The notes under the pieces are model-generated. The model ran no database searches. It saw nothing but the letters and a program-made list of their open reading frames with translations, and had not been told where the DNA came from. DNA of 64,000 nt, taken from assembly GCA_044892505.1 (NCBI GenBank), contig CM097883.1, forward strand, positions 242,358,001 to 242,422,000, written 5' to 3'. Positions 1-25,772 of this stretch are shown here, one piece after another. This stretch comes from Schmidtea nova (Eukaryota). Position 1 is the stretch's first letter; every line of letters starts with the position of its first letter. The position numbers and the translations under genes were made by a program.

Positions 1-792
1 AATTCAATCAGATTTTTTAAATAAAATTCTACATCTAAACTAAATACTAAAAAGGTTGAACCGCCATGTGAGACCCTGAGGCCCCACAACGACGACTCGG
101 ACTCCCTTGCCGCGTGAGAAGCCTAGGAAGTATAACTATATGCATGATTAAAAATTAAATTCAGATTTAGAAAAATTAAAGGTTTCATAAAATTATAATT
201 ACTAAACGATGAAAATCATGGATACATCAAAATAATAAATAATCAAAATAACAAATTACGTTCCGTACTCGAATGTGTGGTTCCTTGTATGAAAATCGGT
301 TTCTCGAAAAGTATCGTTCCGTTAAATAAAATATTTCTTAAAATCAAAGTTTAGTCTTGATTGTAAGTTAAAAGTAAAATGTCTGTTGTTGTGATTTTTG
401 GATCGGTATTTATACTGATCCGTCTGGTTGGATTGACCAATCAGGATCAGGCCGTCCATCAAAGTATTTTTATTATTTTATTCTAACCTAAACATTATTT
501 TGTTTCCTTTTCCGGTTTCTCGCTGGGTGGTCCTGATTTTCCAAGTAATTAATTAATTATTTGCACTATTATTTTATTTAATTCTATCTTTTCTTATTTC
601 AGGCCCCCTTTTGCTGTTGTTTAACGGTTTATTTTCAAAATTTCCTTTTACTGAAAATTTATCAAATATTATTTGTCATTTTATTGTTATTTTTAATTTG
701 TTTTTCTTGTTATTTTTATGTTTATTATTTTCTTTATTGTTTCATGTTTTCGCTCTTTTATTGTGTTTTTAGGTGATTTGGCGGGCCCAACA
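1..792 (-). repeat. 3' LTR, partial (about 1.44 kb predicted to lie upstream of the window)
   Basis: Near-identical to 29015-29806; I counted about 5 substitutions and no net indel by eye. Ends ...GCGGGCCCAACA, which is TGTTGGG on the element strand. Confidence 0.97.
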
Positions 793-810
793 TCACCCGG
801 GGACCCCTAA
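793..810 (-). promoter_or_regulatory. Atypical G-rich tract at the PPT position
   Basis: Element strand reads TTAGGGGTCCCCGGGTGA directly before TGTTGGG; G-rich but interrupted by TCCCC. Confidence 0.45.
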
Positions 811-993
811 AATTGCGTCCCGCAATTAATTATACATAAATACTTATATTCATCATCCATAAAAAGTTCATAGAATTATACATGCAAAGAAAAATCACAT
901 AAGGTGATCGAATTTATACATATCATAAAGTTTGTCATTAAATAGTCAAAATGTAATGATTTGTCACAATAGTTCGATAAGTTATCATAATGT

Positions 994-1563
994 TTATACA
1001 ATTTGTTCGATCGTCTGGCTCGCTTGGGGTTGAGTTCGGGTCCTCTCGTTGATCATTTGTAGCTCGTAGTGGGTTTGAATGTGGTTGAGATGGCTCCTTA
1101 TTCGTCTTTGAGCTCGGTTATCTCGTCTGGAGGTTTGGTTGTAGATTTTCTGCTTTTGTTTTAGGATTTTTATTCTATATGAGGCAAGTAGGATTGTGAT
1201 TGCGATGATAGTTGTGCTGACTGATAGGATTATGATGATTGCTATGATCCATTTTTCTTGATATTCTATTTCAGCTTGGGATAGGCTTTTTATGGGCTCT
1301 CTACCTTCTTTCAGGATTTTTCGGGTTTATTTTAATTTCAGTTGTTGGTTACCGAAGATTTGTTGGATTTGATGGTCTTGATTGTGGGGGTATTTCTGTC
1401 GGAATTCGTTGATTTCTTTAATTACTTCTTCGATTAGGCTGTCTACTTTTTGGTAGGTTTTGTCGGGTAGAACTCGTAATTGGGTTTCGGTTAGTTGTAG
1501 ATCTTCTTTCTGTAGGGTAATGGTTGTTAACCATAGAAGTGTTGCTATTGCGAGCTTTCTCAT
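994..1563 (-). pseudogene. Small type-I membrane protein (signal peptide, ectodomain, TM, basic tail) split by one in-frame TAA at 1327-1329
   Basis: MRKLAIATLLWLTTITLQ is signal-like. The frame stays open for 110 codons after the TAA and includes WIIAIIIILSVSTTIIAITILLASY; final stop at 994-996. Confidence 0.7.
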
Positions 1564-1638
1564 CTCTTTTATACATCGGTCAATACAGCTTGACACTTTT
1601 TATTTTACATAATTTATTTACACTTGGTTTCCGCACAT

Positions 1639-2700
1639 TTATACAAGGGTTTCGTTGGGTTCGTGAAAACTTTCGTCTTGAGGTTCCACCTGATTTATGG
1701 GGAGTGGCATCCATATTACCGTACTCCTCCACATTTCCACTTCCTCTCGGTACGTGTTGGATATCTGGATCTCTTCATCTAATAAGTATTCCAGATAGTT
1801 TGCCTGTTCTGTTAGGGTTTCTATTTGTCTTTCTAGTTCCATTAATCTTTTCTCTCTCTCTTCTTTCTCCATCATTTCCGTTACTGCTGCTGTAATACTT
1901 GTTTCCTTTGTGGGTATTGGTTTTTCTGTCAGCTTTTTCCTCAGTTCTTCGTTTTCTTTTGTCAAATTGGTTATGTTCTCCTCATAACTCTGCCTCGTTT
2001 CTTCCAGTCTTTCTTTAGTTCTTTTTAATTCTATTTTCTTCTGGGTAATCACTCCTTGATATCCATTTATATCTCTTTTCATGTTTTCTTCCTTGTGATT
2101 CCACATTCCGGTCAGCATACCTTTTAATTGTTCTTGATTGGCTAAATCCTCTCCCATTCTTTGTACTTGATAAGTTAATTCTTTAATTTTCTTGGCTTGT
2201 TCCCTGATGAATTGCTGTCTTTTCTTACTCCATACTTTATTTGACGCTTCTTGACTGATCTTTTGCCCTAATTCCTCTTTTAATTCATCGATCTCTTTAA
2301 ACAGTTTCCAATCATCGCTATACGCTGTTCGTTCTATTATCTCCCTTGCTTCCTTGTAAGAGTCTTTTGCCTCTTTCTTCCAATATCTTGCTTGTTCGGT
2401 GATTGACTGGATCTTATGGTCTGTTTTTATCTGTTGTCTATCCCTATCCTCTCTTCGCTCTTTCATCATCTCTTTGTAGTATTCATTTTGTTGCCTTAGC
2501 AGTTTGTAGACTTCTTCTATTTTTTCTCGACTTCTTTGATTCGTTTTCTCGGCTTCTCTTAGTGCTTCGGTTTGTCTTTCCAATTCCTCCTGTTTTCGAT
2601 AATAGGCATGAATCCATATCCCAATCCGCTCCATGTGATTGCTGATCATTTCGTCTTGATGTACGGTTACTTCTTGTAAGGTTACTTCTATATTTCCCAT
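1639..2700 (-). CDS. Accessory coiled-coil protein, 353 aa, unknown function
   Basis: Long ATG ORF, E/K/Q/R-rich heptad-like sequence, same strand and composition as the element. Confidence 0.75.
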   Translation of the reverse strand: MGNIEVTLQEVTVHQDEMISNHMERIGIWIHAYYRKQEELERQTEALREAEKTNQRSREKIEEVYKLLRQQNEYYKEMMKERREDRDRQQIKTDHKIQSITEQARYWKKEAKDSYKEAREIIERTAYSDDWKLFKEIDELKEELGQKISQEASNKVWSKKRQQFIREQAKKIKELTYQVQRMGEDLANQEQLKGMLTGMWNHKEENMKRDINGYQGVITQKKIELKRTKERLEETRQSYEENITNLTKENEELRKKLTEKPIPTKETSITAAVTEMMEKEEREKRLMELERQIETLTEQANYLEYLLDEEIQISNTYREEVEMWRSTVIWMPLPINQVEPQDESFHEPNETLV

Positions 2701-2813
2701 TTCTATAATTACAGATAAAAAGAATATTTAATCAGTTTTTATTTTTATTGTTTTTGATTATTTGTTATTTCATATTGTTTCTATACATTTTATTTACATG
2801 GTTACTTCCTTCA

Positions 2814-4190
2814 TTACGCCAACCATCCTTTTCTATCCGTTTTCTCATGCCTCTCCATTTCTATGTATAGCGTGTCTGCATATAGTCGCTCCCATAGGTT
2901 TTCTTTCCTTATGAACATTGGTTCTCCTACTGCTAGTCCGCATTCTGTTGTTGGTTTTTCACTCGTACTCGTATGTTTGTCTGTCTCGAAGAACTTTTCC
3001 ACTGGTTTTCCTATACTTTTGATTCTTATAATGACTCCTACTTTCAAGGGCCATTCTATTAGGTCATCGTATTCTCCTTTACATAACGAGAAAAATATTG
3101 ACACGTGTGTTCCTTGTCCTCTTCCGTCTTCATTTGGGTATACCTTCAATCTTATTTTGACCCCATTTTTCCATAAATAAAATGGTGGGCTTATTACTGC
3201 TGTTTTAGTCATATTTCGGGCTTCTGTTAGTTTGTCTCTGAAATCTGTTATTTTCCATAGGTAAGGTGCAATTGGTAAGTCCCTTCTTTCGTCAATTTCT
3301 CGTATTAATTGATTATATTGTATCTTCATTCCTTTTCCTAACTCCTCTATGGCTGTTATTTTCTCTTCCATTCTTTCGCGAGTTAGTTCAAACTGCTCTC
3401 TCGTTTCTAGTAATATATTTACCATTATTTTATGTGATTCCACCTCTTTTCCCAGTTTCTGGATTATCTGTTCCGTTTCTTTTGCTGCTTCGTTTGTCAT
3501 CTCCACATGTATTAGTGCTGCTTCTTCCAGATGCTGTTTCATTGTTTGCCGCGTCCGCTTTTCCTTGCATCCTTGTTTGTTATATGGACATTCTCTTGGT
3601 CTTTCGGTACATACTTTCCAATGTTCATGTAACTTTACTTCTTCTGTTATTTCGCAATTGTTTGGACATTTACTTACATATTGTCCGCATACTTTCTCTT
3701 CCGTTATATTCAAGTGTTCTTCTTCAATTTTCCTCCTTGTTTCTTGAGTTTGGCAGTATTCGCATGCGATTTCTTCTTCTTTACATTCGTCCTTGTGTTG
3801 TTCTCTCTTCTTTAGAATTATTGACTGTTGGCACTTCTCGCATTCGGTTCTTTTCTCCTCGCACTTTTCCATATGGTTTTCTAGATTACTTATTTGTCCT
3901 TGCCATGTACAAGGTGTATTTACGCACTCCGTTGTGGTGCTCATAATTTCTCTTTGGGTTGCTTTGTCCGTTCTAGTTTCGTCCAACACTATTCTTCCTT
4001 CTTTACATTCTGGGCATGTTGTTATTCCTGTTGCATCTAATTCTTGTATACACTTCTTACATATTCTACATCCACATATCGTTTGTCTGGGTTCTCGTAA
4101 TAAATTGTTACACTTCCCGCATGTGAGCCTCTTGCTCCATTTTCTGTTTTCTAGTCTCAAAATTTCGATTATTCGTTCTTCTCTGTCCAT
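2814..4190 (-). CDS. TRAF-family protein (RING, TRAF zinc fingers, coiled coil, MATH domain)
   Basis: CGKCNNLLREPRQTICGCRICKKC..CPEC RING; CTWQG..LENH..C and CPYNKQGC fingers; YLWKITDF..SPPFY..G.KIRLKVYPN..G.GQGTHVSIFF..KGEYDDLIEWP MATH signature. Confidence 0.95.
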   Translation of the reverse strand: MDREERIIEILRLENRKWSKRLTCGKCNNLLREPRQTICGCRICKKCIQELDATGITTCPECKEGRIVLDETRTDKATQREIMSTTTECVNTPCTWQGQISNLENHMEKCEEKRTECEKCQQSIILKKREQHKDECKEEEIACEYCQTQETRRKIEEEHLNITEEKVCGQYVSKCPNNCEITEEVKLHEHWKVCTERPRECPYNKQGCKEKRTRQTMKQHLEEAALIHVEMTNEAAKETEQIIQKLGKEVESHKIMVNILLETREQFELTRERMEEKITAIEELGKGMKIQYNQLIREIDERRDLPIAPYLWKITDFRDKLTEARNMTKTAVISPPFYLWKNGVKIRLKVYPNEDGRGQGTHVSIFFSLCKGEYDDLIEWPLKVGVIIRIKSIGKPVEKFFETDKHTSTSEKPTTECGLAVGEPMFIRKENLWERLYADTLYIEMERHEKTDRKGWLA

Positions 4191-4301
4191 TTTCTACAAT
4201 AATATATACTTTTCTACAATAATATATACATTCGACTTGTCATTTATTTTTGATTTTTCTTGTTTTTATTTTACATATTTACAGTTTTCCGCTTTATTTA
4301 T

Positions 4302-4679
4302 CTATGGCTCATTCGTTGAATCTGGTTCCGCTTCGTTGTTTATTCTATTTATTACCCAACTCATCCATCCTTCTTCGGATTCTTCTCCTTCCCCTCGTGT
4401 TAAATGGTTTATTTCTATTGCTTGTCTTTGATTGATATTGCTTATATTTTGATTTTCTCTGGTGAGTTCAGTTATCGTTCTTTGTTGTTCCTCTATTCTG
4501 TGTAATTGCTCGAAACAGTTGTTATAACTTTCTGATAGTAACATTTGTTTTTCCGCTAATTGGTTCTGTAATGAGTTGACTGTTCGTACTAATAAATCGC
4601 ATTGCGCTTTCCATCTCATAGCCATAGTTATTTCAGTTGTTTCGTCTTGTTCGGTCATTTTCTGAATTATATACATCAT
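4302..4679 (-). CDS. Small accessory coiled-coil protein
   Basis: 125-aa ATG ORF with heptad-like Q/L/E pattern, lying between other cargo genes. Confidence 0.65.
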   Translation of the reverse strand: MMYIIQKMTEQDETTEITMAMRWKAQCDLLVRTVNSLQNQLAEKQMLLSESYNNCFEQLHRIEEQQRTITELTRENQNISNINQRQAIEINHLTRGEGEESEEGWMSWVINRINNEAEPDSTNEP

Positions 4680-4783
4680 TTACTTTGCTTTTCTGTCTTT
4701 TTACAATTTTTATAATATCGATACCCATACTATTACGGTAATGCTTTGTTATTTACACTATTATTTACAGTCATAATCCGCCC

Positions 4784-5236
4784 CTATACCATCATTATCG
4801 TCTTTTCCTCGTATCGTTCTTCATCTTCTATTTGTTTCCAGAATTCTTTACCTTTCGTTCTTCTTTGGAATTCTTTCTGTATCTCTTTTGGTATTTCTAT
4901 TCTTTGTTTCATAATTTTAATATCTGGCCATTGTATGGCTGTCGCTTTGTTTCTCTTTTTGTATCTCCAATATACTATTATGCTTGTCGTCAGTATTCCA
5001 TATGCTATTAATATTCCTATACTAATTAATCCTATTACTGTTTTTCCACGGTTTGTTGCTTTGATTTTATTCTGATTCGCTTTTATCTCATTTTGGGTTT
5101 GAGCCTCTGGCTTCTTCTCCTTCTGCACTTGATTCTTGACTTTGTTCATTACTTCTTGTGTAGACCAATGGCGGTTTAGTAGTTGTTTGACGTCATTTTC
5201 CGTTGTCTGGTTTTCTACGCCTCCTGGTTCGATCTG
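4784..5236 (-). CDS. In-frame continuation of the 1329-aa ORF beyond TAA 5237-5239: second TM anchor and tail
   Basis: I translated 5236-5150 as 29 open codons in frame with ORF 4784-5149. HWSTQEVMNKVK and LISIGILIAYGILTTSIIVYW parallel KWTPEEVIKEVK and LIGLGILTATIPVIIALSAIW in the upstream copy. Confidence 0.8.
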   Translation of the reverse strand, partial: QIEPGGVENQTTENDVKQLLNRHWSTQEVMNKVKNQVQKEKKPEAQTQNEIKANQNKIKATNRGKTVIGLISIGILIAYGILTTSIIVYWRYKKRNKATAIQWPDIKIMKQRIEIPKEIQKEFQRRTKGKEFWKQIEDEERYEEKTIMMV

Positions 5237-8200
5237 TTACTGCAGTTTCTCTGAGATCTGATATAATCCGCATTCTGGTTTTTCTGAACCTTTTCTGGTG
5301 AAGGTACATATCGCGTATGTCCTATTTACTTCCATTTTCTTTAATTCGACTTTTTCTTTATTCTTTATTTCTTTACAGTGGGTTAGGTTGTCTTCTTCCA
5401 CTTCTGGTTTATGTTTTGTCCAACATATTCCTTTAACTGTCTGATCAAGTCCTGTTAATGTCAGAGTTCTTTCTGTTTTAATTAGTTCTTCTTCATCGAA
5501 TTTCAGAATCTCTCCTTTTCGGAATGTCTTGCAATTCTCTGTTCCGGGTTGATCCTCTTGGGTTCCTTTCTCCCATATACATATACTTCCTTCTTCGTTC
5601 ATTTGTATTTCTTGTATTTCGATTTCCTTGTTTGTTCGTGATTCGTCGCTTGTCTGAACTTGGTATTCCTTCCTTGGTTCGTTGTATGTTCCCCAGCATA
5701 GTTTGTTGCTGCTTGTTTTTCTTATTGTTATGGCCATTTGTTCTATTATTATTCCTCTGTCAAAACGTTTGGACATTGCTATTATTAACGCTATGCATAC
5801 GCACTCTTGTTGGGGTGATATTCTTTCTCTCGTGTTATTGGTGCTTCTCTCCCCTTCTCCTGGTTTATCCGTTGTGTTTCTTATCTGAGTTGCTGGTTGA
5901 TCTATTGTGTTTTTGATTTCTTTCTTTGTTGGTTTTACTCTATACCATTCAAGTCTAGGCGTTTCGTATTTTTGGCATACGACTGTCTTAGGTAGCCCCG
6001 ACTTCTTTTCCTTTCCTATTATGCATATCCGATGCATGATTCCTCTATCCATCCCTTCTATTCGTACTATATCCTGGTTGGATTTTCTGATTATGCATTT
6101 TAGTGGGTTATCTTTCCCAATTAGTTCATCCTCTCTATTCCAGCATATTTTCTCGACCTCCTGGACATTTACTATTTTTATCCCTGCTTGTAGGTTTGTT
6201 GCTTCTTCCCTATTGATTAATGTCAATATTATTGTTAGACCCAACCATTTCGAACTCTGCGGTAGGCTTCTGGTTCGCCTTTCATATTTTTTCTCTTCGC
6301 CTTTAATCTCTTTTATTTCCTTGTCTTCGTTGTTTATTCCTAGTTTTCCGCTTTTTGCTTCTTTCTTATTTGGTTCTTCTCGTGCTTTTTCTTCTAGTAT
6401 TTCTACTCCATGGCTTGTATTATCTATATTTAGCCATTGGGTTGTTGATTTTCTGGGACTTATCTTGCGTATCCATATAGCTGATAAGGCGATTATTACT
6501 GGTATGGTTGCTGTTAATATTCCTAAACCAATTAATTCTTTAATTTGTTTATTCTCGTCTGTTTGTATAGATTCGCTTTGGTTGAACATTATTCCGTATT
6601 GTCCTTTTAGTTGTCTCCTTAGTTGTTCGCGTTCCTGCTGCTTTCTTTTGACTTCTTTGATAACTTCTTCCGGTGTCCATTTTGCTTGAGGATCGGTTAT
6701 TATTTTTTCTGCGTCCATTTGTTCATTCGTTTGGCTTAGTTCCTTGAATTCGAGTTTCCTTGCTACTCCTTTTGATGTCGCGTTTGCTGGTGTATAGTAG
6801 GTTTCGCATCTTTCTTGTTGGTTTCCTAGTGCGTCCATTTTTTCTATTGTACATACTTCATACTCGCTATTAAATTGTAGTTTTTCGATCCTGATTTCTT
6901 TATTTGTTTTTCTGCACTCTCTTGATTGTCTTCTTATATGTTTCTGGACTATTATCCAACATATTTCCAATGTTTTATTCTCTATTTTCCATAATGTTAG
7001 AGTTGCTGATGTCTTTCTCTCGGGTTTTGTCGTAACTTCCTGGCTTATTGGTTGTTTATTGTTTTTAAAGGTAGTGGTGTACTTCGGTTTTCCTTTGTTT
7101 CGTTGTTTCCTTTTATTTTTCCGTGTTAACGTTTTGGTTCTTGTTCCGGATGAAGTTATATGTATTCCGCATTCTAGGTCGTTTATCGTTATCTGATCAT
7201 TTTTCTTTACCAAACATATTTCGTAGGTTTGTTTACTTTCTAACCCTTTTATTTGTATCGTTGTTGCTCCTGTGCTTGTTCGGCATTGTGGTGTCATTCT
7301 TTTATTTACTTTCTTTTCGTACTTCCTCCAGCATACTCCTTTCACATTTGGTTCTATCTCTTTTATTTCTAATGTTATGTTTACTTTCCGCTTGATTTGT
7401 TTATTTCTCTTCCTCGTTCTCCTTCTGAACTTTATTACTTCTCCAGGTTGAAATGTTTTACATTTTGTGGTACCTTTCTTGTTTGTCTCTTTTTCTAGTA
7501 GGCATAGTTTGTACGTCTTATCTGCTTTTACTTCGGATACTTTAATTACTTTATTCGTTGTTGGTTTTCGACTTTTCCTTATTTCATTTACGCCGATTTC
7601 CTCGTTATTCCTCGCCCAACATTTTATGTTAGTATTCTGTGTATCTTCTACTTCTGTTATTGTCATAGTTTCAATTTCTATTCCTTCCTCTAATCGTTTT
7701 ATTATTATTAGTATGAGTGCTAAGTATAATACTTCCATTTGGTAAGACACTCTTTCGGTTTCGTTTGTGGCAACTCTTGCTTCGGGCCTCTCTATTGTAA
7801 TTCGTATAGTTGGTGTTGTTTGCTTATCTATTGCCTGGGGTTTTTTGTTTTCTGTTCCCTGTGTCTCTGTTCTTCCACATTTTCCGATGATGTAATCTCC
7901 TTTGGGTGACTGTTGTATTGTCATGGCTGCTTTAGGTGTTTGGTATTTTGCACATGCGATTGTGTTGTGTGATCTTGGATGCTTTTGTTTTCTAACGGTG
8001 CATATTTTGTACCAGGTATTTAGATCTAGGTCGTTGATCTCTATGATTTCTTGCTCGTGTTCTGAGATTCTGCAATCCATCGGACTATTTTGTTCCGTGA
8101 TTTTGTCCTTTTTTGACCAACATACTCGTTCGATTCCTTTTGCGTTTTTTATTTGTATTATTGCCCTTTCTTCACATGTCATTCCTTGACTTGGGTTAAT

Positions 8201-9226
8201 TAACGTTAAAATCACTGTTAATAATAGTAATTCTGGTTTGAAGAATGGTTTTATGGTTGATTTATAACCTGTTCTTTGGGTGTCATTTTTATCTCCTTGG
8301 TCGTTTTTTCCTTGTTCTCCCTCTTCATCTCTTTGTTTTTCGTCTTCATTTTTCTTTTCTTCCTTGTCTCGTTTCTTGTCTTTTCTCTCGTTTTCCTCTT
8401 TATCGGGTGGTTCGTGATCGTTTGAATTTTCTGAGTTGTTATCGTCGTCACTATCTGCATTGTCATCTCCCCCTGGCTCGTCGAAAATGTCGTCCTCGAC
8501 ATTGATTTCTTCTATTAGTTTTGCATACGCTAATGTCGTTAGATTACTTGCCTCGAATTCTTGTGTTTCTACCTGCTCCGGTATTACTTTGTTAGTGGAT
8601 TTATATTCCAAGATTTCCTTTTTGGCCTTGATCCAATTGTTGATGTATGTCTTCATCAATTCTTTCCATTTGCCTGTGTATTTTTCTTCTTTCGGGCTGG
8701 TTGTGATTTTTAGATCCTTTCTTTCCATAAACATCTTCAATATCTCTGGCCATTTATATGTTATTAGGGCACTTCTTATACACCAGTTTTGGTTATGTTC
8801 TGTAAACTCATTAATCCTGAATGCTAGTTCGTTGGTATTCGGATTTATCCACGTAAGTATTGATTCTGTTAGTTCAACATTGTGCATCATTGTCAATACA
8901 CTGGGTTTCTTAATTGTTTTGGTTAGGTATTCTATTTCTTCCTGGTTTGAGACGGTTTTAATGAAATTGACCATTTCCCAATTGTGTGTTAACAATGCTA
9001 CATCCAATATTGAATTATCTTTATCTGTTTTACCTGTAAGTCCTGCACCTGCTTTATATAGTTCTTCCAACACCTTTGTTTTTGTTTTGGCCCTTGCTGC
9101 AAATATCATAAGTGTATCTCCTTTCTCGTCTATCATATTCATGTTGCTTCCGCAGTTTAGCATTACTCTTGCAATTTCCATTACTTTTCTGTCTTTGCCA
9201 TTTCGTAAAGCTCTATGTATGGGCAT
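5237..9226 (-). CDS. Ankyrin repeats, helical domain, acidic linker, then two signal-peptide-led blocks of FN3-like modules (about 7) with a TM
   Basis: MPIHRAL, KGDTLMIFAA and NSILDVAL are ankyrin-like. Repeated CW..IxxLxxxxxYxIC..C modules. Hydrophobic segments LLLLTVILTLIN, LGLTIILTLIN and a TM near 6470-6535. Confidence 0.85.
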   Translation of the reverse strand: MPIHRALRNGKDRKVMEIARVMLNCGSNMNMIDEKGDTLMIFAARAKTKTKVLEELYKAGAGLTGKTDKDNSILDVALLTHNWEMVNFIKTVSNQEEIEYLTKTIKKPSVLTMMHNVELTESILTWINPNTNELAFRINEFTEHNQNWCIRSALITYKWPEILKMFMERKDLKITTSPKEEKYTGKWKELMKTYINNWIKAKKEILEYKSTNKVIPEQVETQEFEASNLTTLAYAKLIEEINVEDDIFDEPGGDDNADSDDDNNSENSNDHEPPDKEENERKDKKRDKEEKKNEDEKQRDEEGEQGKNDQGDKNDTQRTGYKSTIKPFFKPELLLLTVILTLINPSQGMTCEERAIIQIKNAKGIERVCWSKKDKITEQNSPMDCRISEHEQEIIEINDLDLNTWYKICTVRKQKHPRSHNTIACAKYQTPKAAMTIQQSPKGDYIIGKCGRTETQGTENKKPQAIDKQTTPTIRITIERPEARVATNETERVSYQMEVLYLALILIIIKRLEEGIEIETMTITEVEDTQNTNIKCWARNNEEIGVNEIRKSRKPTTNKVIKVSEVKADKTYKLCLLEKETNKKGTTKCKTFQPGEVIKFRRRTRKRNKQIKRKVNITLEIKEIEPNVKGVCWRKYEKKVNKRMTPQCRTSTGATTIQIKGLESKQTYEICLVKKNDQITINDLECGIHITSSGTRTKTLTRKNKRKQRNKGKPKYTTTFKNNKQPISQEVTTKPERKTSATLTLWKIENKTLEICWIIVQKHIRRQSRECRKTNKEIRIEKLQFNSEYEVCTIEKMDALGNQQERCETYYTPANATSKGVARKLEFKELSQTNEQMDAEKIITDPQAKWTPEEVIKEVKRKQQEREQLRRQLKGQYGIMFNQSESIQTDENKQIKELIGLGILTATIPVIIALSAIWIRKISPRKSTTQWLNIDNTSHGVEILEEKAREEPNKKEAKSGKLGINNEDKEIKEIKGEEKKYERRTRSLPQSSKWLGLTIILTLINREEATNLQAGIKIVNVQEVEKICWNREDELIGKDNPLKCIIRKSNQDIVRIEGMDRGIMHRICIIGKEKKSGLPKTVVCQKYETPRLEWYRVKPTKKEIKNTIDQPATQIRNTTDKPGEGERSTNNTRERISPQQECVCIALIIAMSKRFDRGIIIEQMAITIRKTSSNKLCWGTYNEPRKEYQVQTSDESRTNKEIEIQEIQMNEEGSICIWEKGTQEDQPGTENCKTFRKGEILKFDEEELIKTERTLTLTGLDQTVKGICWTKHKPEVEEDNLTHCKEIKNKEKVELKKMEVNRTYAICTFTRKGSEKPECGLYQISEKLQ

Positions 9227-12200
9227 TATTCCGTCCTTTGGTAGTAAAAAATGTTACTGGCATCTCCTTTTTTATAGTCGTTATGTCGTTACCATTGTAT
9301 GTTCCTTTTGCGTATGCGTGTACTTTTTCAACTAATGCGCCGAGTATTTCCAGTGCATGTTTACTATTCTCGAATTCCGGTAACAATTCTTTTGCTTTTT
9401 CTTGTATCGCATCTAGTCTAGCTTGGTATGGTGCTTCTGCTTTGAAGAGTGGTGTGAGTTTCCTGTTACTTTCTCTTTCTTTTTTCTCCAAAACCTGTTT
9501 GCATTTTTCGGGGTGGTTTAGGATTTTTACTAGTTCATCATACTCATTTACTATCGTCTGGTATTTCTCGTTAAAATTGTTTATGTCTTTGTATGTTATT
9601 AGTTTATCAAGTGGTTTCGCACACCATTTCCTAATCTTGTTGAATAAAGCCTCCTTCTCTTTATCGAATTTGTGTTCTTCTTCATTCTTTGTGATGTTTA
9701 TGTTCCCTCTGTCTAATAAGGTTAGTAATGTCTTTTGATCGCAAGTAAATTTCAAAAGATATCTTAACAGCGCGTTTTGTCCTTCGCTGTATACTTCGTT
9801 TATGTCTAAGACCCATGTATCATCTTCTGGTCGTTTCCATTTGATTAACTTACGGATCGTGTTGCATTTACCAATTTTTATTGCTTCTTTGATAATGTCT
9901 CCTTTTATTAATTCGTCTATTTCCCACGTGGAGTTAGCTATTATGTATTTCAGCATTGGTTGGTGAGAACTCCATATTACGTGATTTAGCACTGTTTTGT
10001 CTTCTCTATCTCGTTCTGTCCAACTGAAATGAGCCTTTATCAACAGATCTATCATTTCTTTATCTGCTTGGTGGATTGCGGCTGTCATTATTGGAGTTTC
10101 TTGTTCACGATTCCCCACGTCCAAGTTTTGGTTTGTTTCTTTTGCCATTTTTAAGAATTCTTTTGCTCTTTCAATGTTTTTACACTCTATCGCATTGTGT
10201 AAGGCTGGTTGTCCTCCTACATCTTTCAATAAGAGTATTTCAGGGATTTTTTCCAATAATTCAGAAATAATTGGTTCGGTTGGTAATCCTTGTGCGTAAC
10301 GGCTAATTATGTGTCTGATGTCCCTTGATATGCCTACTTCGTCTTTAACATGCCATCTTCCCATTATTTCTCTCGCCTTCAATATGATCTCTTTATTTCT
10401 GATTTCCTTTTGCCTTACTTCCGCTTTGTCGTCTTCGCTTGTGTTTGCTCTGAGCATATTTATCCTGGCTGTTTGTGATCTGGTTATTATTCGATTCTCT
10501 GGTGTTGTAGTTATTGTTTTAGGCACCTTCTTACATCTGCAAGTGTTTACATATATGGGTCGTATTAACGGTCGATTTATTAGCTTAACTTTGACATTAT
10601 TGTCCTTTTTGTATATAATTTCATAAGGTCCTCTTCCAGGTCTTTGGAGTTTCTTAACCGTTCCTGGTATTATTTCGGGAGTTTCTATTATCACCCAATC
10701 TCCTGGTTTTAGGTCGTTCGCTTTAACATTTTTCTTCTGGTCGTGTAAATCCTTATAACTTTCCTGATAAAATTTAATGTTAAGTTCTGCCGTCTTCCAT
10801 ATTTCCTGCATTCTTTCTTTGAATTTGGTTACGTAGTCGTCGTCTTCCATATATTGCGATAATGGTGGTTGATACTCTAAATCTATGGGCATGTTGCATT
10901 CTCTTCCATACATAAGTTGAAACGGGCTTAGTTTTGTTGCTGCATGTATCGACATGCGGTATGCCATTAAACATAATTTTATGTATTCGTCCCAATCGGT
11001 TTGATGTCTGCTGACGTAATTTGATAACATTCTAATCAATGTACCGTTGAATCTCTCTGTTTGTCCATTCGTTTGCGGGTGATATGGTGAAGTTCTCAAT
11101 TTTGCTATTCTGAAATAGTTGGTCACCTCGTTCAGTAACTCACTCATAAAGTTGGTTCCTTGGTCTGTGAGAATTTGTTTTGGAGTTCCGTATCTGCAAC
11201 ATATTTCTTCCACTAGAATTTTTGCTACGGTTTTTGCTTTTTGATCTTGCATGGCAAATGCTTCCGGGAATTTCGTCAGATAATCCGTTATTACCAATAT
11301 ATAAATATTTCCGTTTAAACTTTCTGGTAATGGTCCTATTACGTCCATTGCTATAGTTGTCATTGGCTCTGCTGGTATTGGCATTGGTTGTAGTGGGTTT
11401 TTCCATTTCTTCCCACTATCCTTTCTGGTTGCACAGGTTAGGCAATTTTTAATCCATTCTTTAATATCTTCTTCCATTGTTCGCCAATAATATTTTTGTC
11501 TCATACGATTTATTGTCTTTTTCTCTGACATATGCCCTCCTAATTTCCCATCATGGTATTGGATCATTATCTCTTTCCTTCTGTTTTCCGGTAAGCACAT
11601 CAATTTCTTTACCCCGTCTTGTATTAACAACCATTCTTTGCTTAATATATAGCGATGTTGATATTTTCCTATATGTTCCTTTAATTCCTTATTATCCTTG
11701 AATACCTCCATATTTCGAGATGTTAGGAACTCTATGATTTGTCCTAATTCTTTGTCTTCCTGCTGATCTCTCTTAAGCTCGCTAAAATCTAAATCTTCTG
11801 CTATTAATACACAAATTCGTTGTACATCAGGATCGGTTAGTTCCGGGAATGTCAGTCTTGACATACAGTCTGCATTCGCATTTGCTCTTCCTGATTTAAA
11901 TTTTATATCTGGTGAGTATTCCTGTAACTGCATTGCCCATCGCATTAATCTACTGGATGTTTCTTTGTGCTGTCCTAACCATACAAGCGGTTGGTGATCT
12001 GTTGTTATGCAGATGATGTGTCCCCATAATAAATATTTAAAATGTTTAATCGCTAATATAATCGCTAATGCTTCCCGTTCTGTCACTGAATAATTTTTCT
12101 CATGCTTTTTGAATGTCCGGCTATAATATCCGATTACACGTTCTTTTCCTTCATCATCGTATTGTCCTAATACTGCTCCCGCTGCATATCCGCTTGCATC

Positions 12201-15200
12201 TGTTGCAAGTAGGAATGGCTTCTTAAAGTCTGGGTGTACCAATATGGGTGCGGTTATCAGTTTATCTCTCAACGTTTCAAAGGCTGTTTGTTGTTCATCC
12301 CCCCATATGAATGATACATCTTTCTTTACCAGCTCTTGTATAGGTTTTGCGATTCCGGCGTAATCTTTAATAAACTTTCTATAGTATCCACATAGTCTGA
12401 GAAATTCTTGTATTTGGGTTATTGTTTTTGGTACTGGGCATTCTTTTACTTTGTCGATATTTCTAGGATCCGGTTCTTTTCCTTTTGCTGACACTATATA
12501 TCCTAAAAATGTAACCTTTTCTTTTGCCCAATCGCATTTGGATGGCTTGAGTTTTAACTTCCATTGTCTAAGCCTAACGAATACATCTCGAATATCCTGT
12601 ATGTGTTGTTCTAATGTACTAGAATAAATTAATAAATCGTCGATGTAGACCATGCACTGCTTTATTCCATGGGTGACGAAATTCATGCATCTCTGAAATG
12701 ATGCTGGTGCGTTTGTTAATCCAAATGGCATTTTTCGGAATTGATATAGGTCTCTACCGATGGTAAAGGCAGTTTTCTCTTTATCTTCTTCCTTCATTTT
12801 TATTTGCCAATATCCGCTTTTCAGATCTAACGACGTAAAATATGCTGCTCCTTGTAGTGTTAGTAGCATTTCGTTGATGTCCGGTAATGGATAAGTATCC
12901 CGTTTGGTCACGGTATTCAATCTTCGATAATCTATGCAAAATCTCTGTGTTCCGTCTTTCTTCTTTACCATTACCACTGGAAATTGCCAGGGTGAACAAC
13001 TTGGTTCGATTACTTCCGCATCCAACATTTTCTTCACTTCTGCTTCTGCTACTGCTTTCTGTGCTTCTGCTAATTTGTATGGTCTTAATGCAATTGGTGT
13101 TTCGTCTGTTAATGGTATTGTATGTAGTGTGACATCACATGTTCCTAGATCTAAATCGGATGCTGCAAATATATCCTTATACTCTATCATGAGTTTTTCT
13201 AACTGCTTCCTTTGATCCTCATTTAATAATTCACTATCAATATTCCAGGTTGGTTCTTTATCTTTCTCTGCTCCTTCTATTGGTAGTTCGATATCCATCA
13301 TTGGGGTTAATTTACCTAATCTTTCGTTTTCGTAGATTATTTTGTCCTCTTCATCGAAGTTTACTACGTTTATTGGGATTTCTCCATCGTCATTTATGTT
13401 GACTAGTCCTCTTGCCATTGGTAATGCTTTTCTTTTCTCGAATCTTTTGCTTGGTTCGAAAATCATATCCCCCTGGATTGTCGGATCTATTTTTACATAA
13501 CATATTTTTTCCTTTCTTGCGGGTATTATCATTTGCTTTGAACTTGTCACTTTGGCTTCTATTGCGCATATTTGTCCTGTGCGATCTTTCAGTCTCATTG
13601 TTCCGAGATCGATTACAATCTCTTTAAATAATGCTGGCATCAAATCTGTTCCGATAATGCAAGGTACGCTTAATGCTGGTATGACGGCTACGTACGTATC
13701 GATTTCTGTATTTAAGTGGCGTATTTTTACCCACCATCTTCCTGCTACTTCTACGATTTCTTTGCTACATGCAATTACGTGGACGTTTGTCCTTTCTATT
13801 TCCCGTCTTTGCTCTTGTGGTATCCATTTGATATCGATGGCGGAAATATTTGCTCCAGTGTCGATCATTGCTTCGATTTCTCTTCCGTTAATCTCTATTG
13901 TCGTGGTTAATACTGGACCTGTGTTTGATGACATTACTGCGATCGTGTGTGTATCTCCTTGTGGATCTACGCTTCTACATCTTCTCATTTTATAATCTTC
14001 TGGTATCATGGGGTATACATTTGTCATTGGCATCATTTGCATCGTGCTATTTTTTCCTCCTTGTAGTGGTTCTTGATACATTGTTGGTGGAGGTGCGTAA
14101 CATTTCCATGCGTCGGCTGGATTCTTTTCGATGTACTGTGGTGCTTGGTTCTTATACACTTGTCCTCCTTTATAGTCGTCATCGTCATCATCGTCGTCAC
14201 TCGAATCATTTTGGGTTTTATATCCTTTCATCCTCTCCCATAAACCTTTTCTTTCTCTCTTGAGCTGTTGTCTTGCTTGTTCGTCGTTCATTATCTTTTT
14301 AAATTTGCGTCCTACTTCTTCATCTGTTCCCTTCATTTTTGCTAATATCTTTAGGAGTCTTTTTATTCGGTGGATATCTTTTGAGTGACCGTGTAACACC
14401 ATCGTTTTCGCAAGGAATGGTAAAAATCCTACTACCATTTTCCAATTCACTTTCTTTTCTCTCTTGTAGATATCGAAACACGCTAGCATTTGCGTTATTA
14501 TCACTCTGACGATTTGTATTATTAATATAACCCCTAGTATTCCAGCCATCATTTGTCCGAATATCAGGAATCTTCCCCACATTGCTTTCATCATATTTTC
14601 TGTGGCTTTCTTGAAATGTGCTGGTGACAACAATAGTTCATAATTCGGTCCTTCTCGATAATCCGTTCCTCCCGTTATCGTTACGATATTTAACAGTAAT
14701 GCTTCTCTTCTCGCCGGGAATAATATATTCTGCCTTGCTGCTTCTAAATCTTTTGGGCTATATATTCCGTTGTTTGAGACATCTACGTCGCTGAATTGCC
14801 TATCCTTTGACAACTGCATTAGTTCGAATTCTCTTGGTGCTATTACTTCGGCTCTTCCTGGGAACATAACCCATTTACCATCTGGCTTCTGATAAAGCGG
14901 TCCGTATGCATTACTACAGTTGAATGGATTTGGTTCAAACCCTGGTGGATTGATGATTCTCGTCACCGGTTGAACGTATCGTACTTTTCCTTTGTAATCG
15001 ATTTCTAACTCATTTGTACAGGTTCCAGGTTTCAACTGTGTTGTTGCTGCTAGTGACGCGTGTGTCTTTTCGCAAATGTATACATACATTGCTTCTCCAA
15101 CCACTCTTCCGAAATGTCCTTCTCTCAGTGGTAATAATGGCATCGCGCTATCTGGATTCGTAATCGCTACGGCCAACTTTGTCTTTAATATTTCTCGATT

Positions 15201-18200
15201 CAGTATACAATCATTATTTATCAGATCGTAATACACTTTTTGTAATGAGGCTTGTCCTCTATGGAATAAGAAATCCATTTTATTATTCACATACAGGTGT
15301 AGTTTGATATCCATTGTGTCGATTTTGGGTTTCGCATTTGGTACTTCTTGTTTTGACACATATATTCCTGGGTAATTCGTTTCGTATACCGTTGTACTAC
15401 ACTTAAGGGTTGCTTTCCCTTTTATGAACCTCATTCCCACATCCTGATTTGTGGTTATCAATACTGTTGGTGTGGCTCTCATCTCTATCCGTTTTTCCCT
15501 ATGATCTGGTTTCAATTGTCTTTTATTCTCCAACGCTTCCTTGAGATGCTTTGCTCTAGCTTTGTCGTCATCGTCTTCTTCCTGGAATGTCTTTCCTTGA
15601 ATTTCGTCGAACTGTGCTCCTTGTAGCAGTTGTAATTGACATTCGTTCACCTTTGGTTTGTATACTAATGTTGACATTCCCGTTTGACACATGCTCCTGT
15701 CGATTTTACACATGGATAACGTTTTCATTTCTCCCGTTGTTGGTTCGAAGAATGCTTCATAGCTTTTTAATTCGACTATATACGTATCCATCACCACTAA
15801 GTTAGTTGCGGGTGTTCCGAATATCGGGTAGGTTTCTCCTTGACAATATCCTTCTCCTCCCGTAATCCTTCCTGCTACATAGTATGTTTGTTGCAGCATC
15901 ATTCCTGGTTTTCCTCTTATCTTGATTTTATCTCTTGTTGTTACTTCTCCATGTTTAAACAATGCTTCGCAGTCTTCTCCTTGTAACACGATTGGTTCTC
16001 TTTCCGTTCCTGGCATGACAATTGCTGAATAATGTCCTCTCCCGCAGTAGAATGCGAATCTCGTCTTCTGCACCTTACATTCATTCACCATTGTCTTTAT
16101 GAGTTCTGCTTCTTGATACACGTGGTACCATTGTTCCTTTTTAATCTTTTGTAACTCTACTGGAGTTGCATCTTTGCATTGCTCCGTACCTCTCAATGAA
16201 TACTTTTCTCCTAACTTCATTTGGTCGCAATCAAACACTTCGAATGCTGTTGCGCTATCGGTGCTAATCATCCATATCAACATCATCATTATTATAGAAC
16301 TCAAATTCATTGATGACTTCGCGTTTCCTGTTCCTGCTTGTTCTTTTTCTAACTCTTCCAATATTTTTTCGAATTTCTTTTTCATATTCTTTGCTTGCGT
16401 TTTCTTCTGGTTATTTTTTATAAATGTTTCCCATCCTCCTTTGTTAATGACGTATGGTTCTATTTCTCTGGCTATAATTTTTGCGGTATTTTTTATATGT
16501 CTCTCTAATGCAGTGGGTTTTGGTCGACCTCTACTCAGTGTCAACAGATTGTAGATCGTGTATGCAATGGCTATTATGTATTTATTATCCGTTTCCGCTC
16601 CTTCTGTCAGTTTCTTTATTAACGTAGTGGTTCCTTGCCAGTCTAAATGATTTGATTTCGTCTTTTCTTTTATGAATTCCGGTAAGATGGGTGCGATTGC
16701 GCTGTGTAGTGACTTCGCCTTTTCGCTTATCTCAGTTATCCGCCAGTATTTTCTTAATTCCGGATCAATTATTGCCAATATTTCCATTATTGTTTTCGAT
16801 ATCCATTCCTCCCCTTGACATATTGGTGTTGTCTCTTTTTCTTTTATCTCCGCAATTTTATTTAGTTTCCTTAAGCATAATTCCCATTGGTCTTGTCTCT
16901 TTTCATCCTTATTTCTGATGACTACATTCGCTGGGTCTGTCTTGGGTCTACCTCGAGGTCGTCTATCCATTCCTGTACCTGTTTCCACAAACCTTGTTGC
17001 CCGTCCGGTTTCCTCGGTGACATCTCTTGGTTCGTTAGCTCTTTCTTCTAACCATCTTTCCATTTCCTGGGTTAATTGTACATTTTCGGCATATGCTCCT
17101 CTTGTTTCATCTTCTGTCAAATCGTTTACTTCTTCTATTATTATCTCTTGTTCGACTTCTGTTTCTCCGGTGTTGGTTACTTGTATTGTCGTAGGTAATT
17201 CTTGTATTCTTTCGAAAATGTTATCGTCTTTTTCCTTTGTTAATTCGGTTAGCTCTTCTATCATATCGTCACTATCCGTTAAAATTTCGTCTACGTCGTA
17301 TGGTTGTGGTGGAGTACTTTCTCTGGTTCCTCTGGGTGTTGTCTCAGATCGTCTCGAACTTGTCCCTGGCGTTAGTACTGATTTCATCGGGCTCGGCGTA
17401 CTTATACTTCCGTGTGGTTTATGGTTTTCTTCTTTACGTTTCAATGGTTGCCCCGCTATTGCTTCCACTGTCAAGGTATTCATGAGATCTAATTGTGCTG
17501 GCGTTATTCCGATTTCCAAACTGTTATCTAATGATCGTCCTTGGTGTTGTAAATGGAATGGTGGTTCGTATCTCAATTTCTTTTTAATATCTCGAATTTT
17601 TTCTGCTATTCCTACCCAAAGCTCTTCCTTATCCTTGTTTGGATATATTATTCTTAAATGTACTTTTTGTGGAATTTCTTGCGAGAATTCTTGATTTCTC
17701 CATTTCCTAATTACGTGGTCTAGTTGTTCCGGGCACCACTCGTTAACTCTTTTATATTCCGCGATTGCTTTTGCTACTTTACGTAAACATGTTATATCCT
17801 CTCCATTTACCACGAAAAAATCTGCGAGACCCTTTATTACTTTTCTCTTACCGTGCGCATTAGTTTTTAATATTTCGACAAATTCTTCCGTTTTTTGCTT
17901 TTCCCTTTCTAACCACATAGCCGCGGTTTCTGGTCCATCTAGGTCTATCGGTGTAGCTTTCCTTGTCACCATGCAAACCCTTCCCATTTCTGGTTCGCAG
18001 TCATCTTCCATTCCTCTTTCATATTCTTCTTCATATTCTCCTTCTTTTGGTTCCCAACATTTTCCTTTCTTGTTCCATTGTTTTTCTACGGGTGTTCGTA
18101 TTCGTCTGTTGAGGTTGAGTTCTTCTAATACATTTTCCCACTCTGGCCAAATTCGCCAATTTCGATAAATTTCTACTATTTGTTGTAATTTGCGCACAAC

Positions 18201-21200
18201 TTCTTTCCGTCGTTCCCGTTCTCTTTTCTCATCTTTAGCAGTTTCTCTGGGTGTATCGTCCATTCTGATAACGTGGATGGTTTGGTGATTATCCCATATA
18301 CCGATTTTATATAGTCGTCTCTCATCGTGATCCCATAATACATGTTCGTTGTATTGTATGATTATGTCGTCTTCCCATTCGTCTTCTGGTTCTCTTTGCA
18401 CTAGTGTCTCGTTGATGACATTTATTAATTCTTTAATGGTGCAATCCGCTACCACTTCAATTTCTTTGGTGTCTTCATTAGGCAATTCTACTGAAATTTT
18501 TAGATCCGTTATTTTCCCTTGTCTAAACATTATTTTTCCCATTTTTGCGATTAATTTGTCGTGTGAGATCTGTGACCATCTCGTGTGGCTTGTGTCACGT
18601 ATGCACTCAATACATCGTTTCAATTTCTCGTATTCGCTTCTCATTAACTCTTTTCTATGTTTTTTGACTTGTGGTATGATTTGTTCTATCAGGGAATTTA
18701 GATTCTTTCGTAAGACTCGTTCTTTCTCGTATTCTAACCGGGGTTTTATTCTCCTTTCGAAACACATGTTTGCTTCCTTTGCAACTTCTTGTAGGTTCTC
18801 TTCTTCTTTTTCATCACATATTGATAACAGAGTTATTTCTCCTGGCCATATACCTGTTTCCACTAAGTGCGTTCTTTTCTTTACGAGTCTATTCTGCGAA
18901 TAGATGAATTTGTTTTTATATGAGCTCCCGAGCCTGTCTTCTACCCATCTGTAGATATCATCTGTAAATGGAGTTTTGATCCAGATTCTTGGTGTAGATG
19001 TATTTATTATTATTGAGATGGTGTAATTGAGGAGTGGTTCCTCTATTAATTTCCCTACGTATCGATTTAACATGTCTACTTCTCGGTCTTGTAACCATTC
19101 TTTGTAGTTCATTTGTAATAATGCTTTCATGAATTTCCGATATTGTTTCTTGTCCATGAATTCTTCGTTATATATTACTTCTAGCGAGTTATCTAATAAT
19201 TTCTGGATTTCATCTACTTTTATCTGTGTAGGTTCTGAGGTCTTTATTACTTCTCTCTCTTGGTTTTCGTCTTCGGATTCGTTTAATATGTCTCCTGCTA
19301 GGCTACTGATGTCACTATCTTCTTCCTCATCGGAAAACTCTCTGGTGGTATTTCTTAACATATTAATATGTGCTATTTGGTTCGTTTCCCCTTGTATGTT
19401 CTCCGTTGGTTCTGGTTCGTTTTTGTCAATCTCTGATGTTGGTTCACTCTTGTCCTCTATTACTTCGACCTTTCTCATTTTCTTTTCCAACTCGTCTATT
19501 TCTTTTAAACGTCTTCTTATCATTTTTCCTTTAAATATTCGACTGATTCGGGTTTCGTGACGCACTGGTGGTGGAATTTCTTCTGGTTCTATTTCTTTAA
19601 TAATCATCACGTTTCTTTTTGTTTCTACTACTCCCATGTTTTCCCATATATCCGTTAATTCCAACTTTACTTTTGGCGCACCTTCTATTTGTAGGAACGC
19701 TTCTCTGGGCAGTTTCGTTACTCCTAGAACCATCTGGTTTACTTTGTTGAATAATATTCCCACTTCTTCTTTTACGTTATACTGGAATCTAAACACGGAT
19801 TTGTTGGGCATGATTACCATCATTCTTCTTTTCCAAATCTCCCTTTTCTCTTCCTGGTTTGTCTCAGTTTCCACTTCCTTTTCTATTTCTTTTTCTACCT
19901 CCTCATCTTTTTGTACTATCTTTTTTTGACTTTTGTTGTCGGCTGGATTCGGGTCTATCGAATTCATTTCCAGTGTGGTTTCTTTCTCGCGAGTGTCTGT
20001 TTGGTTTGTTGCTCTTAGCATGTTAATTCTTAGAGGTTGTCGCTCTCTTTCTTGCTGTTTTTGTTCATCCTCTCTTTGTATTCTTGCCCATTCCTGAGCG
20101 TGTCGTGCCTGACTTTCTCGATTCAAACGTTCGTTTTCGCTTTCTATTTTTCTCATCATGCTAATTTGCTGTTGATTGGTTTGCGGATTTCCTCTCGTCG
20201 TATTGTTTATCAGTTCCGTCAACCTTTGAACTTCTTGCATCAAATGTATTTCTTTGGGGGTGGTTTTGTTCTGATTATTGTTATTATTGACTTGTTGGTT
20301 CCCATAATCTTGTCGGTTTACGGTATTTGTTTGATTTCCGTAATTTTGTCGGTTCCCATTACTCTGCCAGTTTCCTCGCTGATTACTTTTTTGTCCGCAA
20401 TTTCTTGAATAGTGACCAGGTCGTCCGCAATTAAAACAGATTATTGTAGAACATCTACTTTCCGAATGTCCTTTAACTCCACATTTTCCGCAATTCAAAT
20501 TTTGATAGCATTCTTGTTGCCAGTGTCCCAATTTTCCACATGTTTTACATTGTCTTGTTTGTCCTTGAGGGTTGTAATTGTTTTGGTTTCCAAAGTTCTG
20601 CACTTTATTTCCTTCATTCCTTCGTTGAGGGGGTGGTCGGTTTAATTGTTGCGAATTTGGAATGTGATTGTTGAGATTTACCTGTGGTTCGGTTTGTGCT
20701 GTGTCCATGGCTAAATAAATTCTGCCCTCACTTCCTATCATATGCAATTCGAATCGGTTAGCTGTTTCTAACGCTTGATCAATGGTCTTGCATCCTTGGC
20801 ATCCAACTTGCGCTCTTATGTCAGGTCTTCTTAGTCCTCCTATGAAGATAGCTGCCATTAACTCCTCGTTTATTGGACCTCCATCCTTGAATACCGATTT
20901 TGCTAATTTTTTCAGTTCACTCGCGTATACCGCATTAGATTCATTCATCTTTTGTTTCCTCATTGAGAATTCTATGAATGCCTCGCTTAGCACTTTATTT
21001 ATTCCAAATGTTTGTTGGAAAAAATCCTTTATCGCTGTCCAGCTTGTAGGTGGATTGGTACCATTTTTCGCTTCCAAATATAGGTCCAATGCACTATCTT
21101 TCAAATATAACTGAATTCTGCTTACTGTTGTTTCCGCTTTCCATTTGCATACTTCCACGAATATGCCAAATTCCTTTAAAAAGGTTTCTAATTTACTCGC

Positions 21201-25731: not shown

Positions 25732-25772
25732 CCCTCTATTACTATTTATCCGGATATCTCTATAGTTCACTA

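Follow-up and report, generated by a model that had tools for sequence, protein, structure and literature searches.

By what means might a retrotransposon express a row of passenger genes carried downstream of pol, and what is the meaning of a short word that recurs just past the stop codons there? The question is raised by a locus of Schmidtea nova (GenBank assembly GCA_044892505.1, contig CM097883.1, forward-strand positions 242,358,001 to 242,422,000). The window, the whole 64,000-nucleotide (nt) stretch that was analyzed and to which all coordinates refer, has as positions 1-29,806 of its minus strand a single long terminal repeat (LTR) retrotransposon. Judged from its sequence, this is a Burro-like giant Ty3/gypsy element with a gag-env-pol polyprotein, ankyrins and TRAF cargo. 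The gene order 3' of pol is a long second reading frame (9226-4784), then four cargo open reading frames (ORFs). Published work is cited here by PMC number, from excerpts of the papers concerned.

A module anchored to stop codons

A first-pass annotation of this DNA had placed copies of TGTAAATA 14, 18, 15 and 16 nt past four consecutive stops (those ending at 4784, 4302, 2814 and 1639). These copies and distances are confirmed: the minus-strand occurrences lie at 4762-4769, 4750-4757, 4276-4283, 2791-2798 and 1615-1622, and two of them (2798 and 1622) run directly into AATAAA, as had also been claimed. The conserved unit is larger than this word. It is a module that consists of GGA(A/T), TGTAAATA and then a second TGTA, and its four instances are the following (offsets are from the stop).

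4750-4781, minus strand: module 1, after the stop of the long upstream reading frame; GCGGA at +2, TGTAAATA at +14, second TGTAAATA at +26
4264-4292, minus strand: module 2, after the 125-amino-acid (aa) ORF; GCGGA at +9, TGTAAATA at +18, TGTAAAATAAAA at +26
2780-2810, minus strand: module 3, after the TRAF ORF; AGGAA at +3, TGTAAATAAA at +15, TGTATAGA at +26
1598-1634, minus strand: module 4, after the 353-aa ORF; GCGGA at +4, TGTAAATAAA at +16, TGTAAAATAAAA at +29

The inter-ORF spacers that hold these modules are 104, 111, 113 and 75 nt long (403 nt in all) and 50% A. All five element-sense copies of TGTAAATA lie within them, against 0.07 expected from base shuffling, and there is none on the sense strand of the 17,094-nt main coding stretch (0.95 expected). 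The signal is positional. (What this means operationally is that over the whole window the word is not more frequent than chance would have it, with 10 matches against 6.4 expected, a number reached by 10 of 100 shuffles.) As the word was chosen afterwards, a post-hoc control counted any 8-mer common to four dinucleotide-shuffled spacers: such a word was found in 160 of 5000 shuffles, and confined to a 4-nt band in none of the 5000.

The second TGTA is present in every spacer and starts 26, 26, 26 and 29 nt past the stop. The combination of TGTAAATA with a TGTA 0-5 nt beyond it occurs four times in the window, once per spacer (0.19 expected; 0 of 100 shuffles). TGTA is also the most enriched spacer k-mer (15 copies against 2.2 expected), and when the 8-mers are masked 10 further spacer copies with a variable 3' half remain, against 3.5 expected (3 of 5000 dinucleotide shuffles). 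GGA(A/T) occurs exactly once per spacer, at +4, +11, +4 and +6, and as GCGGA in three; its count is not enriched (4 against 3.8), and it is the placement alone that stands out. On the sense strand, eight of nine matches to TGTAHATA fall in 2,705 nt of non-coding sequence and one in 21,142 nt of coding sequence.

Measured from the upstream stop, the two TGTA bands have ranges of 4 and 3 nt; measured from the next ATG, the distances run from 59 to 98 nt. Random placement of an equal number of TGTAs in each spacer produces both bands in about 1 in 100,000 trials. A tighter tie to the stop than to the next ATG is predicted only by a translation-coupled element or by shared ancestry.

Ten sense-strand stops were compared. 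Four of them have a further ORF 75-113 nt downstream, and it is these that the module follows; it is missing from the remaining six, namely those of the last ORF, of two leader ORFs and of three internal breaks. Two statements of the annotation have to be withdrawn. It had given every cargo gene this signal, and the last cargo ORF is without a stop-proximal module (as are the leader ORFs). It had also taken the stop at 4784 for the end of a separate cargo gene; the 121-aa ORF that ends there is in frame with a 1329-aa ORF upstream, with one in-frame stop (5237-5239) between them, so that 4784 ends the long second frame instead. Its broader notion of a shared, modular, stop-anchored signal is supported, and extended by the second TGTA and GGA(A/T). 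The feature itself is real.

Outside their cores the spacers have no alignable homology. No stable fold was found in the first 60 nt of any spacer, folding energies being no better than those of shuffles, and Rfam yields no match in positions 1-30,000 of the window. Each spacer also contains two or three upstream ATGs.

The cargo genes and their splice-acceptor-like sites

The genes that adjoin these spacers, and the trailer that follows them, are listed in the order of transcription.

4302-4679, minus strand: cargo ORF of 125 aa; no family above cut-off
2814-4190, minus strand: cargo ORF of 458 aa, TRAF-like; zf-TRAF and MATH domains, RING-like N-terminus by eye
1639-2700, minus strand: cargo ORF of 353 aa, coiled-coil-like; weak Filament match below cut-off
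994-1563, minus strand: last cargo ORF, 189 codons, one hydrophobic segment; in-frame stop at 1329-1327
796-993, minus strand: 3' trailer; three TGTATAA(A/T) at +73, +111 and +157 from the last stop

Assignment of the TRAF-like ORF comes from a profile search (MATH_2, E 3.6e-20; zf-TRAF, E 4.8e-06) and from four TRAF-type protein matches at 25-39% identity. The 125-aa protein, from its sequence, looks coiled-coil-like, and it is weakly similar to the 353-aa protein (25% over 83 aa, E 0.02). Three ORFs terminate in GTA-stop.

All 722 sense-strand YAG sites were ranked as potential splice acceptors by a simple T-richness score devised for this analysis. Three locations are of interest.

2701-2728, minus strand: T-rich acceptor-like site (rank 1 of 722) with its AG at 2704-2703, which leaves 2 nt to the ATG at 2700
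4191-4230, minus strand: acceptor-like 20-nt T-rich site in two copies, with AGs at 4215 and 4195 (ranks 19 and 60 of 722); 3 nt separate the second from the TRAF ATG
27242-27270, minus strand: acceptor-like site (rank 17 of 722) with its AG at 27246, at 3 nt from the start of the leader RING ORF

A T-rich YAG thus stands 2-3 nt before the ATG in three of five accessory ORFs (P ~1e-4 by shuffling of the 100 nt upstream of each), and good acceptor-like sites precede two of the four cargo ATGs. The spacers contain no donor-like site.

A candidate tandem PUF-type RNA site

In the reading favored here, which is put forward tentatively and with somewhat more doubt than confidence, the module is a tandem PUF/Pumilio-type site, carried by spliced cargo mRNAs at a point just past the ribosome that terminates; that it is bound, that the mRNAs are spliced and what follows from binding are all predictions from the sequence. 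A Pumilio element was among the functions that the annotation had suggested, and it is the one that fits best: the unit that is conserved is TGTA, and all five TGTAAATA copies match the Pumilio consensus UGUANAUA, which acts most strongly from 3' untranslated regions (UTRs) (PMC5758885). Ordinary poly(A) sites of planarians reportedly do without UGUA (PMC5068929), so that it would need another reader.

The module would be an RNA signal on the sense transcripts of the element, set at a short and constant distance past the stop of every ORF that has genes downstream; the first of its two UGUA copies, UGUAAAUA, is a perfect Pumilio/PUF element. Splicing to the acceptors near the ATGs, either in cis from the LTR leader or by spliced-leader trans-splicing, would place the cargo ORFs on mRNAs of their own and would also strip away the upstream ATGs of each spacer. 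These mRNAs would keep a tail past the stop, with its end either in the spacer, at a distal AATAAA, or 0.8-4 kb away at the 3' LTR. A PUF-family protein would then bind the UGUA pair at the first place that a terminating ribosome leaves uncleared, and would set the stability or translation of all four mRNAs jointly. The canonical outcome would be repression through CCR4-NOT (PMC3868585); shielding of the long tails from nonsense-mediated decay is a possible one. The module would probably have spread by duplication of a gene end and later been kept by selection on the UGUA cores.

We infer the protective role of PUF proteins at stop codons; Xbp1 mRNA is reportedly a case of protection by a bound protein. 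Planarian Pumilio is said to be needed for stem-cell upkeep. From the 3' LTR, the distance to the stops with a module is 3989, 3507, 2019 and 844 nt, and to the last stop only 199 nt, so that, if the cargo mRNAs run toward the LTR, the module would be limited to long-tailed stops. One figure for the shadow of a ribosome past the stop is about 15 nt. Regulatory (microRNA) sites avoid a ribosome shadow right after stops (PMC4859803).

Several points count against this proposal. A shadow of ~28 nt, as given in PMC11529991, would take in the first copy, so that the second alone would lie beyond it. GGA(A/T), at +4 to +11, falls within any ribosome footprint, and the proposal gives no explanation for it. 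In three of the four spacers the second copy does not conform to the Pumilio consensus; the last cargo ORF has relaxed distal TGTA sites only, none of them stop-proximal, and the leader ORFs have none. With regard to splicing, two of the four cargo ORFs (those starting at 4679 and 1563) lack a good acceptor by the T-richness score, and a search of the LTR with a wider pattern found no consensus-like donor, only two weak GTAATT. Strand specificity is ruled out as proof of an RNA role by composition, which makes the sense orientation about seven times likelier than the antisense. Finally, the support comes from one copy of the element, at the level of sequence.

Alternative readings

A possible, though rather unlikely, alternative is an operon-like 3'-end signal: the UGUA pair would recruit CFIm25 and the adjoining AAUAAA would recruit CPSF, cleavage and polyadenylation would take place in the spacer, and spliced-leader trans-splicing would provide the downstream 5' end. 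The CFIm25 dimer binds two UGUA. The module stands exactly at the four stops that have a downstream ORF, and its restriction to gene boundaries is accounted for equally well in this way, as is the module-free last ORF, which would use the LTR. AATAAA abuts TGTA in three of four spacers, and these hold four of the five minus-strand TGTA(N)AATAAA of the window; the absence of donor-like sites from the spacers also speaks for this reading. Distances between genes in flatworm operons peak at roughly 100 bp (PMC8629364), with 300 bp as a criterion (PMC12582326), and spacers of 75-113 nt agree with both; CFIm25 is present in planarians (PMC5068929). On the other hand, the last-named source reports Schmidtea poly(A) sites without an upstream UGUA, and in spacer 1 both AATAAA and all four variants that the source lists are missing. 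The U-rich sequence expected around or after a CFIm/CPSF cleavage site is not seen at the module hexamers: the T fraction 10-40 nt past them (0.17-0.33) is about that of AATAAA within coding sequence (median 0.20 of 41), and the ends of the leader ORFs (0.43 and 0.50) and the distal AATAAA in spacers 2 and 3 (0.40-0.53) resemble real sites more. Moreover, nuclear processing predicts no fixed distance from the stop, and with four such sites in series the genomic RNA would be cut if they were not leaky. The CFIm reading is therefore weakened, by the reported lack of UGUA at planarian poly(A) sites together with the U-poor flanks found here. For the dedicated poly(A) site that the annotation had offered as its other choice, the juxtaposition of AATAAA and TGTA holds good in three spacers; the flanks and the signal-free spacer 1 do not agree with it.

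The PUF and 3'-end readings can be combined: the distal AATAAA might be where short mRNAs end, and the module would then serve as their 3' UTR. A more far-reaching proposal, which is unlikely as it stands, would be that the passenger genes of the retroelement are organized like a eukaryotic operon. Spliced-leader trans-splicing would provide a 5' end for each cargo gene, and the UGUA module, read by a host PUF protein or CFIm25, would choose at every gene boundary between processing, decay and read-through, so that both cargo expression and the making of full-length genomes would be tied to stem-cell state.

It is decidedly less likely that the module is an internal promoter in which an ETS-like GGA(A/T) core and a forkhead-like GTAAATA start a separate transcript for each downstream cargo ORF. 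Each of the four 3' cargo ATGs does have one module 59-98 nt before it, and three of the spacers are similar in length, so that both anchors hold. A role as DNA makes it easier to account for GGA(A/T) within the ribosome footprint, and the genomic RNA would be spared. The forkhead core consensus is RYAAAYA. All of the 8-mers fit it, but the 10 other TGTA and three of the four second copies do not; the forkhead site that had been named as one more possibility is thus at variance with the conserved TGTA unit. Spacing is tighter to the upstream stop, and the acceptors and upstream ATGs indicate splicing. A T bias upstream of the start characterizes the stem-cell and constitutive promoters of planarians (PMC10558129), whereas the spacers are A-rich.

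That the module is a relic, the spacers deriving from one duplicated gene end and the shared words having no present function, is improbable, and a functionless relic is considered the least likely reading of the module. Common descent is hinted at by spacers 2 and 4, which both have GCGGAAA...TGTAAATA...TGTAAAATAAAAA, by the GTA-stop endings and by the weak likeness of the 125- and 353-aa proteins, and loss of function by the three coding breaks of this copy. The spacers are nevertheless unalignable outside their cores and the flanking proteins are unrelated, so that neutral decay would have erased the 8-mer; the nearly identical LTRs, too, mark a young copy.

A microRNA 8-mer site, finally, has next to nothing to recommend it beyond a spacing that fits, since it leaves the variable second copies unexplained and we know of no candidate microRNA for TGTAAATA. 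Two other candidates were rejected: a TATA box, TGTAAA being a non-functional TATA variant, and gene-end signals inherited from the negative-strand virus source of env, for which there is no polymerase to read them.

The element and its surroundings

Apart from the cargo region, the element comprises the following parts.

28974-29806, minus strand: 5' LTR; inner end approximate; CCAAT- and TATA-like boxes by eye
26780-27241, minus strand: leader accessory ORF of 153 aa with a C-terminal RING; AATAAA overlaps its stop; module absent
9213-21260, minus strand: polyprotein of 4015 aa, with CCHC gag, Monjiviricetes-type fusion glycoprotein, protease, reverse transcriptase (RT), RNase H, integrase and ankyrins
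4784-9226, minus strand: long second reading frame, with ankyrin start, cysteine-rich repeated segments and hydrophobic segments; in-frame stop at 5237-5239
1-792, minus strand: 3' LTR; extends past the window edge; compared with the 5' LTR over 792 nt

The two LTRs lie 29,014 nt apart and have 5 mismatches in 792 nt. At this 99.4% identity the copy is, by its sequence, a young one. The element is at least 29.8 kb long, with ~4.2 kb of this contributed by a nested element, and its 3' LTR exits the window. A domain profile search places gag, env-like glycoprotein, RT, RNase H and integrase in one 4015-aa frame (CCHC at residues 274-288, Monjiviricetes fusion glycoprotein at 1926-2266 with E 5.7e-70, protease at 2453-2543). 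Three breaks interrupt the coding sequence, a frame change near 9213-9226 and in-frame stops at 5237-5239 and 1329-1327; they may be due either to mutation or to assembly error. The gag frame is open, and free of methionine, for ~190 codons 5' of its first ATG (21,830-21,261, minus strand), and an acceptor-like site at 21,902 (minus strand; rank 5 of 722) lies near these open codons; the true start of the polyprotein may be supplied through splicing. The second frame (5237-9226, minus strand) has a weak Fn3-like match below cut-off and may encode a surface protein that is joined to the end of the polyprotein.

In the leader, the ORFs ending at 28,042 and 26,780 (minus strand) have AATAAA overlapping the stop and then T-rich sequence, as in ordinary poly(A) sites. 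Both lie upstream of gag, and their AATAAA sites, if used, would cut the full-length RNA. Two perfect TGTAHATA at 28,598 and 28,551 (minus strand) are inside an imperfect direct repeat that also holds GCGCGG. By eye, an ATAATT..G.GGGACG.CAATTTT-like stretch is found on the minus strand both at 830-810, before the 3' LTR, and at 27,370-27,350, upstream of the leader RING ORF.

The nested element (22,400-26,600, plus strand) is an unrelated, rearranged Ty3 fragment with 587- and 312-aa ORFs, a 147-nt duplication and 32- and 29-nt tandem arrays; one TGTAAATA lies at 22,510 in its A/T-rich 5' part. At 51,080-52,810 (plus strand) is an LTR-like stretch that begins with TGTTGGGCC, has CCAAT- and TATA-like boxes and is followed by a 135-aa ORF (52,181-52,588). 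It is weakly similar to the LTR of the giant element and, going by sequence, is possibly the remnant of a related family. The acceptor-like site upstream of the 135-aa ORF resembles the 2704 site at 17 of 20 nt; the trailer has AATAAA and then three TGTA. This is the last ORF before an LTR, and the module is absent after its stop.

A second family is represented by six related LTR-like pieces at 68-83% identity: 40,085-40,440, 43,160-43,905, 46,540-46,830, 60,000-60,250 and 61,484-62,235 on the minus strand and 52,850-53,130 on the plus strand; a CCHC gag-like ORF (39,604-39,191) follows one of them. An ABCD1-like peroxisomal transporter fragment in one open frame (37,578-38,372, plus strand) adjoins an assembly gap and is possibly a processed copy. 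An imperfect palindrome of ~160 nt (83%) at 56,972-57,132 contains a background TGTAAATA, and a second palindrome lies at 55,498-55,679. The open frame at 62,607-63,998 (minus strand) has a reverse-transcriptase match, runs off the window end and looks, from its sequence, like a non-LTR element.

Comparison with known systems

The element family and the 8-mer are already known. As to the arrangement, the open-licence literature searched held no case of an LTR element in which a UGUA pair recurs, anchored to the stops, from one gene boundary to the next. What is excerpted of PMC6431247 has nothing on the expression of accessory ORFs, the corresponding text of PMC13524379 does not treat cargo genes and non-coding signals, and that of PMC11410931 contains nothing on such a module. 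With four exact sites, predicted acceptors and a predicted binding protein, expression of the cargo genes becomes addressable. If the PUF reading is true, a transposon would have wired its cargo into a host stem-cell regulator by means of a repeated 30-nt module; if the operon reading is true, a retroelement would exploit host trans-splicing for a multi-gene cassette.

The module is not general to Ty3 elements. One scan of genome contigs gave 32 Ty3-type loci, from contaminant contigs, none of which matches the env or cargo proteins; among their 77 ORFs of at least 100 aa none has TGTAHATA 8-25 nt past the stop or a TGTA pair, and a looser TGTA pair occurs somewhere in two of the 32 loci. A protein search gave nine relatives of the gag-env-pol type, with 30-41% identity over the aligned region.

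The planarian Ty3/gypsy elements Burro/GYPSM1 have an env-like glycoprotein in frame between gag and pol and an internal region of up to 25 kb, or more than 30 kb with LTRs; Burro-type elements carry apoptosis- and ubiquitin-related cargo (PMC6431247). The element described here resembles them in its in-frame env-like glycoprotein, its ankyrins and its MATH/TRAF domains, the last of these in an accessory ORF, as in the Dugesia tigrina element of the same paper; at about 30 kb with the nested element included, it may be comparable in size as well. It differs from Burro in that TRAF stands downstream, in a row of four cargo ORFs, rather than upstream of the polyprotein or inside it. No BIR domain was matched in the 19 element and flank frames scanned (the leader offers a RING ORF only). 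A BCL2-like candidate precedes env, with a GGW motif seen by eye at residue 1608; PDB sequences, Pfam, and Foldseek on a low-confidence model (pLDDT 50) gave no BCL2-like match. The gene order is that of the Platyhelminthes GAG-ENV-POL errantiviruses of group C1a (PMC13524379). By eye, of the six rows for Schmidtea in the supplement of that paper, Smed_errantivirus_5 and _6 come closest to the env segment, and a 10-residue stretch of this segment is absent from the supplement table, as excerpted. On sequence alone, the Burro-like layout and this likeness of env make a triclad flatworm the probable host; a search with host gene sequence, whose best hits were molluscan (63-65%), indicates no more than an animal.

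With the Pumilio response element (PMC5758885) the module shares the exact 8-mer, a position downstream of stop codons and clustering; the fixed distance from the stop, the fixed second UGUA and the recurrence after consecutive genes of one mobile element set it apart. A somewhat comparable arrangement is that of the stability element (RSE) of Rous sarcoma virus, which lies close to a stop and is long, pyrimidine-rich and bound by PTBP1. In both, a protein-binding element (a predicted one, in the present case) comes right after a stop with kilobases of RNA beyond; the module, in contrast, is ~30 nt long, A-rich and UGUA-based. Flatworm spliced-leader operons (PMC8629364, PMC12582326) have same-strand genes ~100 nt apart, an acceptor near the downstream ATG and a donor-free spacer. 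Here, too, the spacers are free of donor-like sites and all four distances between same-strand genes are within the 300 nt allowed for such operons; acceptor-like sites stand before two of the four cargo ATGs. Those operons, however, are clusters of host genes, and here it is an LTR element, which needs its full-length RNA as well, that has its genes so arranged.

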